This document shows, piece after piece, positions 23,563 through 27,906 of a stretch of DNA of 32,923 bases. Where the stretch lies: IMG/VR virus record IMGVR_UViG_2623620501_000013; one strand, written 5' to 3'. The notes under the pieces are model-generated. The model saw only the letters and a program-made list of their open reading frames with translations. It was not told where the DNA came from and did no database searches. This stretch comes from a virus. Lineage: Duplodnaviria; Heunggongvirae; Uroviricota; Caudoviricetes. The translations under genes were made by a program, and so were the position numbers. Numbering within the stretch: position 1 is the stretch's first letter; each line of letters begins with the position of its first letter.

Positions 23563-23901
23563 TTATTTTTTATTCTCGTTTATCAACACCAGGTATCCTC
23601 TGACATACTCCCATACTTTCTGGTTATCTGTTGGATGCACTTTTCGACAATCTATGGCTTCATTTCCATAATCGCCAATGTCAGCTTGGGCTTGTGTTAA
23701 GAGAATAACCTTCCTGAGAGCGCATCCTCTGATGGTATCCTTTGAAATATCATCCCAGCCATTCATGTATGAATAAGCCAGATTACGTTGTGCCTGATAA
23801 TCGCCCTGTAATGTTTTTTTGACCAAATCTTCCTCTGAATCAGAAGCATGGGATATCCCTGTAAAACATAAAGTCAGAATAAGTAATAACAGTTTTTTCA
23901 T
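23563..23901 (-). CDS. Small secreted protein with cleavable signal peptide (moron)
   Basis: 112 aa starting MKKLLLLILTLCFTGISHA; AT-rich relative to flanking genes; own terminator. Confidence 0.55.
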   Translation of the reverse strand: MKKLLLLILTLCFTGISHASDSEEDLVKKTLQGDYQAQRNLAYSYMNGWDDISKDTIRGCALRKVILLTQAQADIGDYGNEAIDCRKVHPTDNQKVWEYVRGYLVLINENKK

Positions 23902-24697: not shown

Positions 24698-25108
24698 TCA
24701 GTATGTGAAATAGACAGTTGCCACGCCGTTATAGTGATCAAACGACACGGCGTTTACCTCATAACTGGCCGGTAGCTTCGAGCCAAGAACGTATCCGGGC
24801 CACGTTTTCCATGGAATTTCTCTGCTCTCACTGTCGCCATATACCGTACATCCCAGTGAGCCTACAGCTTCATAAGAACGCTTACCGCACGTTATGAACC
24901 CCAGATGTTGCTTACTGCCCTTAACAGAAATCGGGAGAGCACTGGCTGATGCGTTAGCAGCGTCCCGCTCCTGTTGGCTTGCGATATTCGCAGAGTTTGC
25001 AGCAGCTACAGCAGCCGTGGTCGCAGCGGCAGATGCCACAATAACTGCTGAAGCCTGCGTATGTTGGGTAATGGTTAGCAATGCCGCCACAAAAATCATT
25101 TTCTTCAC
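24698..25108 (-). CDS. Secreted Ala-rich protein with signal peptide
   Basis: GTG start at 25108 with AGGAGG 6 nt upstream; N-terminal signal-like MKKMIFVAALLTITQHTQA, Ala-rich linker, Cys-containing C-terminal domain ending YFTY. Confidence 0.5.
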   Translation of the reverse strand: MKKMIFVAALLTITQHTQASAVIVASAAATTAAVAAANSANIASQQERDAANASASALPISVKGSKQHLGFITCGKRSYEAVGSLGCTVYGDSESREIPWKTWPGYVLGSKLPASYEVNAVSFDHYNGVATVYFTY

Positions 25109-25120
25109 CTGGCACCTCCT

Positions 25121-25303
25121 TTACATACCGTGATTTTTCCAGCGGTTTTGGGCTGCGCTTCTGTTTCGCCAGACACCGTAAAAACGAATAGAGGACCACT
25201 CCCTAAAACCAAGATATCTATAGCGAACAACAAGCCGATTTGAGATACGGATAAGTTGCCCCGGCTTTGCTATCAGCAGTCTTGCCTTACGGTTTTTCAT
25301 CAT
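25121..25303 (-). CDS. Small basic hypothetical protein
   Basis: 60 aa; its ATG overlaps the stop of the upstream 57-aa ORF (ATGA); AGGAGAG just upstream. Confidence 0.3.
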   Translation of the reverse strand: MMKNRKARLLIAKPGQLIRISNRLVVRYRYLGFREWSSIRFYGVWRNRSAAQNRWKNHGM

Positions 25304-25473
25304 TTTGCTCTCCTGCGTTTCTTTGCTTCGCGTCGTGCAGCTGCAATACCGGTATGGCGGCGCTTTTGTGCCGGGATGATGTTGTCAGCCATCAGGACAT
25401 GTGGCTTTGCAATTAGCGCAGAAGCCCAAAAACGAGTCGGGTACGGTAACAAGCCGATACATGCCACACGCAT
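25300..25473 (-). CDS. Small basic hypothetical protein (57 aa, below the ORF-track cutoff)
   Basis: Translated by hand as MRVACIG...AAARREAKKRRRAK; TAATG overlap with the upstream gene stop and AAGGAGG upstream. Confidence 0.3.
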   Translation of the reverse strand: MRVACIGLLPYPTRFWASALIAKPHVLMADNIIPAQKRRHTGIAAARREAKKRRRAK

Positions 25474-26102
25474 TACTCACCTCCTTTGATGCGAATGCCA
25501 GCGGCGCGTGGCACATTAACTTCCACGATTCGTACTGTTGGTTTGTACATCTCAATCGCTGTCAGCCAGTCAGCTCCTGTCATGCGCTTTTCCGCATCGC
25601 CATTAGTCCACTGAACTGGTACACCAATAGCCTTCATCGCGATTTCTATTTCCCCGGCAATGGCGCTTTTTCCGCAACCAGTAAAACCAGAAACAACGAC
25701 AAGAACTTCGCCTTTGGCTGGTTTTATTTCCCGTGCTTCCAGTTCTGCTATGCGCTTCTCTGCGGCTTCCAGCTTGGCTTCTGCATCTTTGGCTCGCATC
25801 TGCCAGTTGATAGCGATGTCGATAACGCTGTTAGCACAACTGGACTCATTCTCTTCGGCAGCTTTAGCTTCAGAAAGCTCATCAAGCAGTCCAAGAACAA
25901 CAGTTGGCGTGGCGAGCGTGATAAAACGCATATTGCTCATATGCTCTTCATCGCTAACATCATCGCCAGCCTCGACCGCTGCCATGTGCTGAACATAGCC
26001 GCTATCACAGGTATTCCAGATTGCCCCTGCCTCGTGCCCCCATTCACCATGTAGCGCTTTTTCTGCCGCCTCACGCAGTGCCTGATAGTTAATTTTGCTC
26101 AC
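25473..26102 (-). CDS. Ea22-like protein with a C-terminal Walker A (P-loop) motif
   Basis: Probable GTG start at 26102 preceded by AGGAGG. N-terminal SKINYQALREAAEKAL... resembles ead/Ea22-like proteins as I recall; coiled-coil middle; C-terminal VLVVVSGFTGCGKS. Confidence 0.5.
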   Translation of the reverse strand: MSKINYQALREAAEKALHGEWGHEAGAIWNTCDSGYVQHMAAVEAGDDVSDEEHMSNMRFITLATPTVVLGLLDELSEAKAAEENESSCANSVIDIAINWQMRAKDAEAKLEAAEKRIAELEAREIKPAKGEVLVVVSGFTGCGKSAIAGEIEIAMKAIGVPVQWTNGDAEKRMTGADWLTAIEMYKPTVRIVEVNVPRAAGIRIKGGE

Positions 26103-26463
26103 GGGTTGCCTCCTGTTCATTTCCCTTGTTCAGTTTTCGTCTGCATACAGCGCAATCATCGGGGCTTTCGAAGCTGTCTGGTTCGCGTTCACCAGAGTAC
26201 ATCCATCTGCGGCAGATACTGGTTACTTCATTCTCGGCAAAATAATGATATTTTTTCGACCTGGCTGGTCTGCCCCATCCAGCTGTTCTCTCGCTCACAT
26301 CACGTTTTAATCCCCCCGCGCGGACCTCCTTTAGCTCCAGAAGGGCCAGCCTCAGAAGCGTCCACCACTCACTGTCTGCAACCGGCTCCATATCAAGCGC
26401 TCTGTCAGCATCAGCAATCAGTCTGGTCAGGCTCTTATCGCTTATTCTGGTTTGCTGGCTCAC
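26089..26463 (-). CDS. Hypothetical protein with zinc-ribbon-like Cys motif
   Basis: Probable GTG start at 26463 preceded by AGGAGG; C-terminal ...SICRRW...DDCAVCRRK...; the ORF is open from 26502. Confidence 0.45.
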   Translation of the reverse strand: MSQQTRISDKSLTRLIADADRALDMEPVADSEWWTLLRLALLELKEVRAGGLKRDVSERTAGWGRPARSKKYHYFAENEVTSICRRWMYSGEREPDSFESPDDCAVCRRKLNKGNEQEATREQN

Positions 26464-26749
26464 TGGTTGCCTCCTGTTCATTTTTTTCATTCCGGTACAC
26501 AAGAATTACGACATCTCCCCGGGTAATTACGCGTGCGGGGTCGCCCTGTTGCATATGGTCAATATCAAACGCGTCATTAAACGCATTTAGCGCCTTCGCG
26601 CGCTTGTCTTTACAACGACGTTTTTCACGCTGCTTAAAGAGCGAAGAAATCAACCACCTGAATGACATAAAAGTGATATAGCCATAACCGATAAGCGCCA
26701 GACCTGTATTCATGGCTACATCTATCGTTATCGTTTTATCAATGACCAT
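26435..26749 (-). CDS. Small membrane-anchored hypothetical protein
   Basis: 104 aa; N-terminal hydrophobic segment (LALIGYGYITFMSFRWLISSLF); ACAGGAGGC ribosome-binding site before the ATG at 26749. Confidence 0.45.
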   Translation of the reverse strand: MVIDKTITIDVAMNTGLALIGYGYITFMSFRWLISSLFKQREKRRCKDKRAKALNAFNDAFDIDHMQQGDPARVITRGDVVILVYRNEKNEQEATSEPANQNKR

Positions 26750-26969
26750 TGCCAGCCTCCTGTTTTGCCACTTTAAACGCCCGTAACATCGGGACCGTTT
26801 TACCGCTGATGACAGTGTTCATAACAATACCGATTCCACTGTGATGTAACGCTCCCGGTGCAACAAACAGCGCAGCATCTACAACTCTGAAGTAACGGTG
26901 GAACTCCCAGAACCAGCAAGAAATAGTGATAGTTGCGGTGACCCCATGGTCATAAAATTCAATTTTCAT
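26739..26969 (-). CDS. Hypothetical protein
   Basis: 76 aa; ATGA overlap with the upstream gene stop at 26966-26969. Confidence 0.4.
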   Translation of the reverse strand: MKIEFYDHGVTATITISCWFWEFHRYFRVVDAALFVAPGALHHSGIGIVMNTVISGKTVPMLRAFKVAKQEAGNGH

Positions 26970-27195: not shown

Positions 27196-27906
27196 TTACA
27201 CCCTCCCCAGTGCCAGCGGTCTGTTGCTCTGACCATTAACCCCCTGATGCAGTCTGGCGTTTTTCCCGGCGATAAAACCGGCAGTAGCGGCAAACTCTGC
27301 ACCCCGACACGCTTTAGCTGTGCGCATATCCCCGTCGCGCAGCCCCTTAGTGCTGTGCAGGTTCTTTCTGTAAAGCTCAAGGCGGCTTTTTTCTTCCGGG
27401 GAGACGTCATACACCGCAATGACATCACGGGCACCAAAGACCCAGCCTTCGCAGAACTGGTCGCCACGGGCTACCCGCGTGGACGGACCACAACGTTTGC
27501 AGTGTTTATCCTGATATTTCTTGCGCTCTGCCATCATCTGACGGGAAAGCACATCAAACGCGTAAGCCGCGATTTCCGGGCGGCTGTCAGAGCCATAAAA
27601 ACGCACGTGACGTTTGAGTGAACCAGAAGCCCGGTATTCGCCGGATATGTAACACTCGACACCGAAGGCTTTACAGACCAGGTCACACAGGATGTGCATA
27701 TAACGCGGCGGTGTACTGGCATCACTCGGCGCACCCGCGCTGGCAGCTTCCTGAATGTCGAACAATTCAGCGTCGTTTTCGCTGATGCCATGCTGGCGCA
27801 TATAAGCCTGGGCTTTTGCAATAGCGTTAGCGGCTTCTTCCGGGCTTGATGTTCCTCTGGCAAGGCGTAACAGTTTTTTGATTTTGGCAATGTATTTATC
27901 TTTCAT
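27196..27906 (-). CDS. DUF2786-like phage protein with Cys-rich C-terminal region
   Basis: 236 aa; N-terminal ...KIKKLLRLARGTSSPEEAANAIAKAQAYMRQHGI... matches the DUF2786 pattern as I recall; C-terminal region has several CxxC-type cysteines. Confidence 0.5.
   Translation of the reverse strand: MKDKYIAKIKKLLRLARGTSSPEEAANAIAKAQAYMRQHGISENDAELFDIQEAASAGAPSDASTPPRYMHILCDLVCKAFGVECYISGEYRASGSLKRHVRFYGSDSRPEIAAYAFDVLSRQMMAERKKYQDKHCKRCGPSTRVARGDQFCEGWVFGARDVIAVYDVSPEEKSRLELYRKNLHSTKGLRDGDMRTAKACRGAEFAATAGFIAGKNARLHQGVNGQSNRPLALGRV

Follow-up and report, generated by a model that had tools for sequence, protein, structure and literature searches.

The repeated gene junctions of this cassette are probably recombination joints, and a mosaic early cassette in which portable start leaders act as exchange joints is likely to be the best explanation for them. 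Short sequences are repeated at consecutive gene starts, and the leader stands beside unrelated neighbours that read it in two frames. A DUF4752 gene that only some of the relatives possess has its ends on the repeated cores, and a switch between prophage sequences falls at the edge of a conserved island. The window, which here means the whole analysed stretch of 32,923 nucleotides, has a 99.9%-identical prophage in RefSeq that carries, on one strand, the Mu transposase, an AAA ATPase, the cassette, gp16/GemA and Mor. This context bears out the preliminary description of the DNA, which saw an accessory cassette without Mu core genes; the cassette is variable and part of a Mu-like prophage. The small non-core genes most likely belong to the early operon of a Mu-like transposable E. 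coli prophage, between the transposition genes and gemA/mor. No record of Mu or D108 was found among the nucleotide matches.

All features described below lie on the minus strand. Adjacent genes of the cassette overlap by 1–29 nt (ATGA, TAATG or a 14-nt overlap), with the exception of a 12-nt gap ahead of the 136-aa gene. The DUF4752 gene (26435–26749) encodes 104 aa with an N-terminal hydrophobic helix, and its product matches Pfam PF15944 with 134.2 bits against a cut-off of 27; this is the membrane-anchored protein that had been noticed earlier. The match covers aa 7–90 only. The last 14 aa are coded by the first of the two long junctions, J1, and this tail lies outside the family since the Pfam model stops at aa 90. 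In the near-identical prophage of strain GF75, the A-run immediately 5′ of this junction is one A longer, so that the DUF4752 gene ends at the TGA of AATGA, while six other copies keep the frame of the window.

The next ORF, of 124 aa, had been taken for a zinc-ribbon protein. As one conserved gene this assignment fails, and the ORF is a lineage-specific in-frame fusion of two small-gene families. The N-terminal half (26314–26463) is homologous to a stand-alone gene of 54–106 aa (phrog_14672), the homologues of which differ among relatives in their C-terminal part. The C-terminal half (26089–26298) is homologous to a stand-alone phage protein of about 65 aa and has an in-frame GTGAGC at its start. 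The pattern H-x10-C-x19-C-x2-C is invariant in six homologues of this half and, judged by sequence, is a probable zinc site; Pfam gave no match for the zinc-site protein. Its stand-alone homologues end in ...LNKxxx, and the junction tail, the last 10 aa of the ORF, which are coded by the second long junction (J2), is again outside the family. The RefSeq annotation covers just the last 69 aa, and the automatic annotation of a 69-aa versus a 124-aa ORF is thus shown to be uncertain.

Downstream of the Ea22-like gene lie two genes for very basic peptides, as had been described. The 57-aa gene (25300–25473; pI 11.9; phrog_13831) has a hydrophobic N-terminal half and a basic tail, and its start overlaps the stop of the Ea22-like gene (TAATG). 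The 60-aa gene (25121–25303; pI 12.0; phrog_1380) overlaps it through ATGA. The 136-aa gene (24698–25108), with a signal-peptide-like N-terminal segment, forms the right-hand conserved flank of a swapped block. A lambdoid/P1-like block at 25269–25772 runs from the end of the helical part of the Ea22-like protein through its C-terminal domain and the 57-aa gene into the 60-aa gene. It is 93–96% identical at the DNA level to PhiR49_2, phiV10, D6 and RCS47, which shows a recent sharing of DNA with other phage types.

Three consecutive genes had been described as starting with near-identical junctions, at coordinates that proved about 3 nt too high. The likeness is borne out for J1 and J2. A repeat search returned a 26-nt direct repeat at 26097–26122 and 26458–26483, with 25 of 26 nucleotides identical (96%) and a spacing of 361 nt. 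In J1 (26458–26483; AAATGAACAGGAGGCAACCAGTGAGC) the Shine-Dalgarno sequence is followed, after 6 nt, by the GTG at which the 124-aa ORF starts, and J2 (26097–26122; AAATGAACAGGAGGCAACCCGTGAGC) holds the leader and the GTG start of the Ea22-like gene. The pattern AATGAACAGGAGGCAACC[C/A]GTGAGC has two minus-strand copies in the window (26097–26121 and 26458–26482). The third junction, J0 (26755–26764), lies within the 3′ end of a 76-aa gene, with the ATG of the DUF4752 gene 5 nt further on. It has in common with the others just the layout and the 10-mer core AACAGGAGGC, which includes the Shine-Dalgarno sequence. Exact copies of this core number three in the window, one of them within J1 at 26469–26478, and all are at the three consecutive gene starts. 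That a single sequence supplies both the C-terminus of one protein and the ribosome-binding site and start of the next was correctly seen: NEQEAT is the reading of the repeat in both upstream ORFs (NEQEATSE in the DUF4752 protein at J1), these ORFs stop 11–29 nt beyond the next start, and AGGAGG stands 6 nt ahead of GTG at both junctions.

Could such likeness arise through convergence on an optimal translation start, namely AGGAGG, a 6-nt spacer and GTG, or through chance? All cassette genes have strong Shine-Dalgarno sequences of the AAGGAGG type, and the J0 core is just 10 nt long and mostly Shine-Dalgarno; with one mismatch permitted, it has five matches in the window where 2.0 are expected. 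Moreover, the hexamer GTGAGC is not enriched in the window, with 16 copies found and 18 expected. Yet the identity of J1 and J2 takes in AAATGAAC and CAACC, neither of which is part of a Shine-Dalgarno sequence, and none of 100 shuffles contained a match to AATGAACAGGAGGCAACC[C/A]GTGAGC even when three mismatches were permitted. The same 18–20 nt are also kept in more than 120 phage contigs, and the DUF4752 difference described below stops exactly on the cores. Convergence or chance is therefore a very improbable origin of the junctions as a whole, and for J1 and J2 this reading is largely refuted.

The exact double junction of 26 nt is rare and restricted to a single small lineage; it is present in about 8 of 5426 E. 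coli genomes and in two IMG/VR contigs. Scanning IMG/VR with the 17-mer ATGAACAGGAGGCAACC gave four matches, two in the same prophage lineage and two by chance in high-G+C contigs, so the long repeat is lineage-specific. In other prophages of the same family J1 is kept in variant forms. The shorter leader, AGGAGGCAACC-N-GTGAGC, is by comparison a conserved 5′ leader of ead/Ea22-family genes. The exact 18-mer, which is the 3′ 18 nt of J2, was found in more than 120 IMG/VR contigs. About 90% of exact leader matches are attached to Ea22-like genes; besides these, the 18-mer heads at least six unrelated N-termini, including the VSQQTRISDK gene of the window. In 80 Ea22-like loci of IMG/VR, the genes upstream of AAAGGAGGCAACCAGTGAGC are of at least 12 different kinds. 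They finish either in ...QLRKGGNQ* with a GTGA overlap or in ...KEATSE[RQ][ND]* with a 14-nt overlap. Since the upstream genes read the leader in two frames, its DNA is kept whatever the upstream frame. The same leader between unrelated flanks is what characterizes a conserved boundary sequence.

Around the leader, conservation forms an island (26052–26116) from −14 to +50 relative to the GTG, and the flanks on both sides are unrelated among phages. In 58 unique loci the majority base reaches 75–95% within the island and 37–55% outside it. An isolated BLAST island of 54–57 nt is seen in three relatives (L002, L009 and L010), and about 2500 of the 5426 E. coli genomes have island matches. The island and leader might owe their conservation to a separate function, for example in the Ea22 N-terminal peptide, in translation efficiency or as a target for a regulator or antisense RNA; the recombination at the edges would then be incidental, and the leader no selected linker. 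We regard this as possible, though less likely than the exchange-joint reading. In its favour, 50 nt of the island are coding and specify a conserved peptide VS-x-I-[ND]-YQALRE, the leader nearly always sits on Ea22-like genes, and the mosaic has many breakpoints in other places. Random recombination followed by selection is, in a view attributed to Hendrix, said to leave joints at gene boundaries. On the other hand, the third-codon positions within the island are likewise highly conserved and the leader has moved to other gene families, both of which fit a recent recombinational spread. Neither the island nor the three junctions folded better than shuffled sequence (z-scores 0.25, −0.59 and 0.0), and no Rfam match was found for a junction RNA element. 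Both results speak against an RNA element at the junctions. The reading of an own function is compatible with most of the exchange-joint explanation and differs from it only on selection for exchange. Selection on the ribosome-binding site and N-terminal peptide, or a recent spread, could explain why the island is conserved, and breakpoints may cluster there only because homology sits there. Alternatively, the Ea22 leader may be kept by selection as a recombinase-independent linker through which lambdoid, P1-like and Mu-like phages swap early accessory genes with one another.

The junctions had been interpreted as traces of module shuffling, and a comparison across related prophages now supports this. 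Of 15 IMG/VR relatives, four lack the DUF4752 module of 286 bp, as do several complete E. coli genomes. The four relatives (L098, L101, L104 and L108) align to the window at 27300–26755 and then again from 26478, with BLAST pieces that overlap exactly on AACAGGAGGC; because the pieces have only this core in common, the DUF4752 module is what these relatives lack, no more and no less. Forms with and without DUF4752 both occur among 62 complete E. coli genomes that match the junction. Similarly, the SCAID and Ec55 prophages are 99.5% identical to the window as far as about 26058–26039, unrelated on to 25122, and 94.7% identical thereafter. The switch in the SCAID prophage falls at the 3′ edge of the Ea22 5′ island. 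Breakpoints coincide with the leader at some joints and not at others. Several lie inside genes and off any junction (26403, 26356 and 25772), and the boundary repeats thus account for only part of the mosaic.

A recombinant between J1 and J2, which would carry a 361-bp deletion, was not found in the 5426 E. coli genomes. A synthetic 260-nt query of this junction gave no close match in a single piece, and matched only lambdoid prophages in which DUF4752 abuts Ea22, at 69% identity. The long repeat has not been seen to recombine because the exact double junction is confined to its small lineage. Efficient exchange requires a minimal perfect pairing of 31–34 bp for RecA and 23–27 bp for Red-beta (PMC3945230). 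With its 10 nt, the core falls far short of what homologous recombination needs for pairing, and therefore the DUF4752 event, a gain or a loss, must be a short-homology or illegitimate one.

Direct repeats on both sides of single genes, with spacings of 286 bp for J0/J1 and 361 bp for J1/J2, might also bring to mind a dedicated site-specific or mobile-cassette system with sites like the attC of integrons, or target-site duplications. However, no recombinase or integrase adjoins the cassette, as would be expected of such a system. The repeats have neither dyad symmetry nor a stable structure, do not share one length (10 and 26 nt) and fall on ribosome-binding sites, and the leader belongs to the Ea22 gene in many unrelated contexts. 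We consider such an origin extremely improbable.

Taken as exchange joints, the repeated junctions would work as follows. Each would be a portable translation-start leader made up of AGGAGG, a 6-nt spacer and GTGAGC, the same leader that forms a conserved boundary on the 5′ side of ead/Ea22-family genes in lambdoid, P1-like and Mu-like phages. As the same short sequence stands ahead of different genes, recombination would have a place to act. Crossovers within the Ea22 5′ island of about 65 nt would trade the sequence on either side, and events between cores of 10–26 nt would add or remove single genes. Recombinants would stay expressible because each product retains an intact ribosome-binding site and start codon. 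Where the upstream gene reads into the leader, the tails NEQEAT, KEATSE or KGGNQ and the stop-start overlaps would result, and these overlaps would couple translation. Exchange at the island could be carried out by the host RecA or by phage single-strand-annealing recombinases, and events at the 10-nt core could occur by slippage or short homology. The cassette is presumably transcribed from the early promoter.

The Ea22-like gene (25473–26102) encodes 209 aa with an N-terminal Ead_Ea22 domain, a helical middle and a C-terminal Walker A domain. The Ead_Ea22 domain (PF13935) scores 57.1 bits against a cut-off of 27 over aa 2–121. The C-terminal domain (25476–25748) occupies aa 119–209, of which about 75 aa are conserved, and contains GFTGCGKS at aa 139–146 (25665–25688) behind a putative beta-strand, as in a Walker A motif. 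The earlier description of an Ea22-like protein with a short Walker A domain is accurate. The G, T, G, K and S of the motif are invariant in 47 sequences down to 52% identity, and an invariant E follows a strand-like VRIV. No entry for the domain of about 75 aa exists in Pfam, NCBIfam or PADLOC. The Ea22-like protein had no significant match to a P-loop family, with best E-values of 0.02–8. The best Pfam P-loop scores, AAA_16 (E = 0.053) and APS_kinase (E = 0.057), were under their cut-offs, and NCBIfam OppF gave 16 bits against a cut-off of 540. A PDB profile search yielded weak Walker A matches only, and a PDB sequence search returned no Ea22 chain and hence no sign of a C-terminal domain of the lambda type, the fold of which was solved by NMR. 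Single-sequence structure prediction of the whole protein gave no reliable model (pLDDT 39).

The domain is widespread. Enterobacterial and high-G+C phage proteins share it at 52–68% identity, and it is found at either end of proteins 110–623 aa long; a Pfam search of ten of the longer proteins identified no partner domains. Our best guess is that the Ea22-like protein forms a coiled-coil oligomer presenting a small C-terminal domain that binds phosphate or a nucleotide. It is a more speculative suggestion, and a rather doubtful one, that the succession of strand, GxTGxGKS, helix, strand, helix and VRIVE is a natural minimal P-loop module, which binds a nucleotide or phosphate ligand only as an oligomer held by the coiled coil. 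If true, this would provide a natural counterpart of designed P-loop prototypes and an exchangeable effector head in many temperate phages.

Ea22 of lambda and of Stx phages favours lysogeny, the only experimental knowledge of the family (PMC7093339, PMC10834534). Our best guess is that the cassette encodes dispensable early proteins that tune the relationship between phage and host. The cassette had instead been put forward as the best candidate for a module of host interaction or superinfection exclusion. In the wider form of this proposal, the module would serve defence, superinfection exclusion or anti-defence with the P-loop protein as an enzyme. The cassette does lie in a hypervariable accessory slot of the prophage early operon and its products include a Walker A protein, the putatively secreted 136-aa protein and DUF4752 as a membrane protein. 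Variable prophage slots often carry genes for defence, exclusion or anti-defence. Nevertheless, HMM searches of the cassette proteins with PADLOC, Pfam and NCBIfam placed Ead_Ea22 and DUF4752 above cut-off and gave nothing for the others. None of the proteins from DUF4752 to the 136-aa protein was matched by PADLOC, the sole match of which was a weak one of the upstream 75-aa protein to 'E2' (E = 0.0033). The genes are also swapped one by one and in many different combinations, which speaks against a single multi-gene system, and the tested relatives, lambda and Stx-phage Ea22, act on the balance between lysis and lysogeny (PMC7093339). The defence proposal found no support in these searches, and we regard it as unlikely.

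Our study presents a compact case of early-gene trade among transposable, lambdoid and P1-like temperate phages. A shared leader with a ribosome-binding site offers both homology for exchange and ready expression of the incoming gene, and natural variants reveal the gain or loss of a single gene directly. An old question thereby becomes testable on a defined sequence of 18–65 nt. The work also points to a widespread, unclassified Walker A mini-domain.

Several known systems resemble the cassette in part. In phage Mu, the semi-essential early region between the transposition genes and gemA/mor holds small, tightly packed and dispensable early genes. The cassette has the same position, strand and run of small packed genes; in contrast to Mu, its genes are not Mu genes and its DNA is partly common to lambdoid and P1-like phages. 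Lambdoid morons, as described by Hendrix and colleagues, usually have their own promoter and terminator and often a different base composition. The cassette modules are like morons in being extra genes between conserved neighbours, present in some relatives and absent in others, but they are predicted to depend on the operon transcript and the shared leader. No promoter-like or terminator-like site was found on the coding strand within the cassette and no anomaly in its composition (G+C about 0.50), and together these rule out a classical moron.

The Ea22-like protein shares with lambda Ea22 and P22 Ead (PF13935; PMC7093339, PMC10834534, PMC8614690) the Ead_Ea22 domain, a middle part that is helical or coiled-coil and a C-terminal domain that can be exchanged, and C-terminal domains of Ea22 already differ between lambda and Stx phages (PMC10834534). 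In both settings the gene is an early non-essential one among small ORFs, often with TraR-like and DUF4752 genes upstream. The C-terminal domain in the window is, however, unrelated to the solved lambda domain and carries a Walker A motif, and the gene lies in a Mu-like early operon rather than between exo and xis. With P-loop NTPases and designed prototypes (PDB 6c2u, 'phosphate-loop protein') the domain has in common the strand, GxxGxGKS, the helix and the invariant Lys-Ser, as well as an invariant acidic residue after a later hydrophobic strand. Its size is near that of minimal designed P-loop proteins, whereas about 75 aa are probably too few to accommodate the five or more strands that such a core usually has.

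A parallel to the junctions comes from lambdoid phages, for which Susskind and Botstein (1978) and Clark et al. (2001; HK620), as cited in PMC3029335, named short conserved sequences at gene boundaries as a proposed source of mosaicism. As far as that citing text describes them, the likeness consists in short sequences conserved at a gene boundary between differing flanks, with a ribosome-binding site and a stop-start overlap, and in joints that coincide with them. Here, however, a Mu-like transposable prophage exchanges with lambdoid and P1-like phages, and one event uses merely a 10-nt core. The cassette junctions belong to these "conserved boundary sequences", and the general idea is known. 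The cassette is no new kind of system but a clear example of a known process.

A Mu-like transposable prophage of E. coli makes up the window, which is read here on the minus strand; over 2.7 kb, the RefSeq-annotated prophage of strain GF75 is 99.9% identical to it. The gene order annotated in GF75 is Mu transposase, AAA ATPase, small early genes, DUF2786 protein, the cassette, a gp16/GemA-family gene, Mor, holins, and terminase. The genes considered here run from the DUF4752 start (26749) to the end of the 60-aa ORF (25121). A self-contained moron was rejected, since no promoter- or terminator-like site was found on the coding strand of the cassette and its base composition is ordinary. The cassette is most likely carried on the early transcript. 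Elsewhere in the early region, a 112-aa ORF with a signal-peptide-like N-terminal segment lies between gemA and mor (23563–23901, minus strand) in a low-G+C patch (0.40–0.44). In relatives such as E2348/69 and CFS3292, this place is taken by a different gene, of 158 aa, and the position is thus a second variable slot. The otherwise 99.9% identical prophage of E. coli 160-11H1 (NZ_AP031375.1) is longer than the query by about 340 bp in the matched stretch; an 'XF1762 family protein' is annotated there, and the extra DNA looks like another module variant.

The repeated gene junction of the preliminary description is borne out. The sequence AATGAACAGGAGGCAACC[C/A]GTGAGC occurs twice in the window, at 26458–26482 (J1, the leader and GTG of a 124-aa ORF) and at 26097–26121 (J2, those of the Ea22-like gene), while shuffles of the window gave no match even at up to 3 mismatches; only the coordinates first assigned to the copies were about 3 nt off. 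By a repeat search of the window, the two copies are 26 nt long, 96% identical, and 361 nt apart. The third junction (J0, 26755–26764, before the DUF4752 gene) has only AACAGGAGGC in common with the other two, and the window has three exact copies of AACAGGAGGC, one at each of these consecutive gene starts. Every junction carries AGGAGG, a 5–6-nt spacer, and a start codon. Both long copies are read as NEQEAT by the upstream ORFs, which stop 11–29 nt past the next start; the other cassette genes are separated by 1–4-nt overlaps or a 12-nt gap. The junctions fold no better than shuffled sequence and have no match in Rfam. A site-specific cassette system is unlikely, because no recombinase lies nearby and no dyad symmetry was found in the repeats.

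The repeat can be traced to the leader of Ea22-family genes. In the upstream junctions of 80 IMG/VR loci encoding Ea22-like proteins, AAAGGAGGCAACCAGTGAGC stands immediately 5′ of the gene in most cases, behind upstream genes of at least 12 unrelated groups. These genes run into the leader in one of two frames, ending either in ...QLRKGGNQ* with a GTGA overlap or in ...KEATSE[RQ][ND]* with a 14-nt overlap, and the leader DNA is therefore kept whatever the upstream protein needs. Among 58 non-identical loci, the majority base reaches 75–95% from −14 to +50 around the GTG, versus 37–55% on either side. Of 5426 complete E. coli genomes, about half contain this 5′ island; its annotated neighbours include TraR/DksA, DUF2737, DUF7446, and YfdS. 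The exact 18-mer AGGAGGCAACCAGTGAGC is found in more than 120 IMG/VR contigs, and about 90% of its copies stand before Ea22-like genes. At least six unrelated N-termini are also found behind it, including that of an SGGKDS-motif protein and that of the VSQQTRISDK gene of the window. From this survey, J2 is the leader usual for Ea22 genes, and J1 is a copy of that leader before another gene; the 5′ extension AAATGAAC of the repeat is common only to the lineage of the window. Tandem Ea22 paralogues, each with its own leader copy, occur in several phages. Four IMG/VR loci (L118, L126, L135, L178) have two Ea22-like genes with starts 584–1058 nt apart, each behind the exact 18-nt leader, so that leader duplication is not unique to the window. 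In another locus (L174, 7781–8700), the leader and a GTGAGC start stand before a gene (at least 300 aa) with SGGKDS in its product, a motif typical of PAPS-reductase-like enzymes; here the leader has been passed to a larger gene that is not Ea22-like.

The 124-aa ORF behind J1 (26089–26463) is, judged by its sequence matches, a composite of two small-gene families. Residues 1–50 match a stand-alone gene of 54–106 aa whose C-terminal part varies among relatives, and residues 57–120 match a stand-alone protein of about 65 aa in which H, C, and CxxC are invariant, found in phages of Klebsiella, Shigella, Escherichia, and Pseudomonas. In E2348/69 a GTGA overlap ties the end of the first gene to the start that follows; at the equivalent GTGAGC of the window (26298), which is in frame, no stop occurs, and the two parts are thus fused. 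The earlier view of a zinc-ribbon-like protein would apply at most to the C-terminal part, whose invariant residues are a probable zinc site; the ORF as a whole joins two families. The RefSeq (PGAP) annotation covers just the final 69 aa, from GTG 26298, whereas the open frame begins at GTG 26463 with a consensus Shine-Dalgarno sequence. The internal start has the same first two codons as the J1 and J2 starts. We favour the predicted 124-aa product over the 69-aa one because of the strong Shine-Dalgarno sequence at J1. The Stx2c-converting phage Stx2c_JNE082796 (LC727881.1) contains a Mu-like phage annotated as inserted inside it, in which the 65-aa zinc-site protein is a separate gene just upstream of a gemA-like gene.

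The Ea22-like assignment of the 209-aa protein is confirmed by a Pfam Ead_Ea22 match at aa 2–121, followed by a C-terminal domain. This domain is near-identical across hundreds of Ea22-like proteins with differing N-terminal parts and is found in 446 clusters (50% identity). High-G+C proteins of 110–623 aa carry it at 52–68% identity, at either terminus. Its invariants are GxTGxGKS, a GDxEK-like loop, and an E after VRIV; searches of Pfam, NCBIfam, and PDB gave only sub-threshold Walker A matches. One such high-G+C protein, of 453 aa with the mini-domain N-terminal, is encoded in a prophage that has an integrase at its end (L228, 3197–8232; GCA_007833655.1, CP031058.1). Its gene directly follows a bAvd-like gene and a reverse transcriptase, arranged as in a diversity-generating retroelement, and is followed by a DNA methylase. 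C-terminal domains differ among Ea22 proteins, and the Ea22 proteins of lambda and Stx phages favour lysogeny (PMC10834534, PMC7093339, PMC8614690). Lambdoid phages, phiV10, and P1-like phages share the block 25269–25772 at 93–96% DNA identity. With a pI of about 12, the 57- and 60-aa proteins are very basic; both fall in PHROG families of unknown function. No cassette protein matched a PADLOC defence model, and the host-interaction or exclusion function once proposed for the cassette finds no support. The unclassified Walker A mini-domain is the most interesting loose end.

The 104-aa DUF4752 protein matches Pfam at aa 7–90, and its last 14 residues are encoded by the junction. In GF75 the run of A immediately before J1 (window 26483–26490; L001, 6800–6840) is one A longer than in the window and five other copies, which moves the stop to the TGA of AATGA and leaves 90 aa. 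The frame of the window is found in six other copies; the extra A could be a slippage variant or a homopolymer sequencing error. In many STEC lambdoid prophages, such as a remnant in E. coli 05-3629 (L011, 2349–2640), DUF4752 runs straight into the Ea22-like gene, overlapping it by 14 nt (ATGAGCGAGATTAA), and is preceded by a TraR-like gene. The DUF4752–Ea22 pair is probably lambdoid in origin, and the Mu-like family has probably placed other genes between the two.

Natural variants support the proposal that the junctions mark recombination. In 4 of 15 IMG/VR relatives of the gene behind J1 (L098, L101, L104, L108), that gene directly follows the 76-aa gene, and alignment to the window covers 27300–26755 and then resumes from 26478 onward. 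The two pieces overlap on AACAGGAGGC, matching J0 and J1; joined there, these loci lack exactly the 286-bp DUF4752 module. Forms with and without the module are both present in complete E. coli genomes. The SCAID/Ec55 prophages show a second switch. Their identity to the window is 99.5% as far as the Ea22 5′ island (26052–26116); they diverge within 26058–26039, are unrelated over the body of Ea22 and over the genes for 57 and 60 aa, and align again at 25122, the boundary before the 136-aa gene. Other breakpoints fall inside genes (26403, 26356, 25772), and no product of a deletion between J1 and J2 was found among the E. coli genomes searched. The minimal perfect pairing for efficient exchange is 31–34 bp for RecA and 23–27 bp for Red-beta (PMC3945230). 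The 26-nt repeat and the island fall in or close to this range; the core, at 10 nt, falls well short of it, and the DUF4752 event must therefore be of a short-homology or slippage kind. Short conserved boundary sequences have long been proposed for lambdoid phages (Clark et al. 2001; Susskind and Botstein 1978; cited in PMC3029335). The junctions of the window are an instance of the same concept, extended here to a Mu-like prophage exchanging with other phage types.
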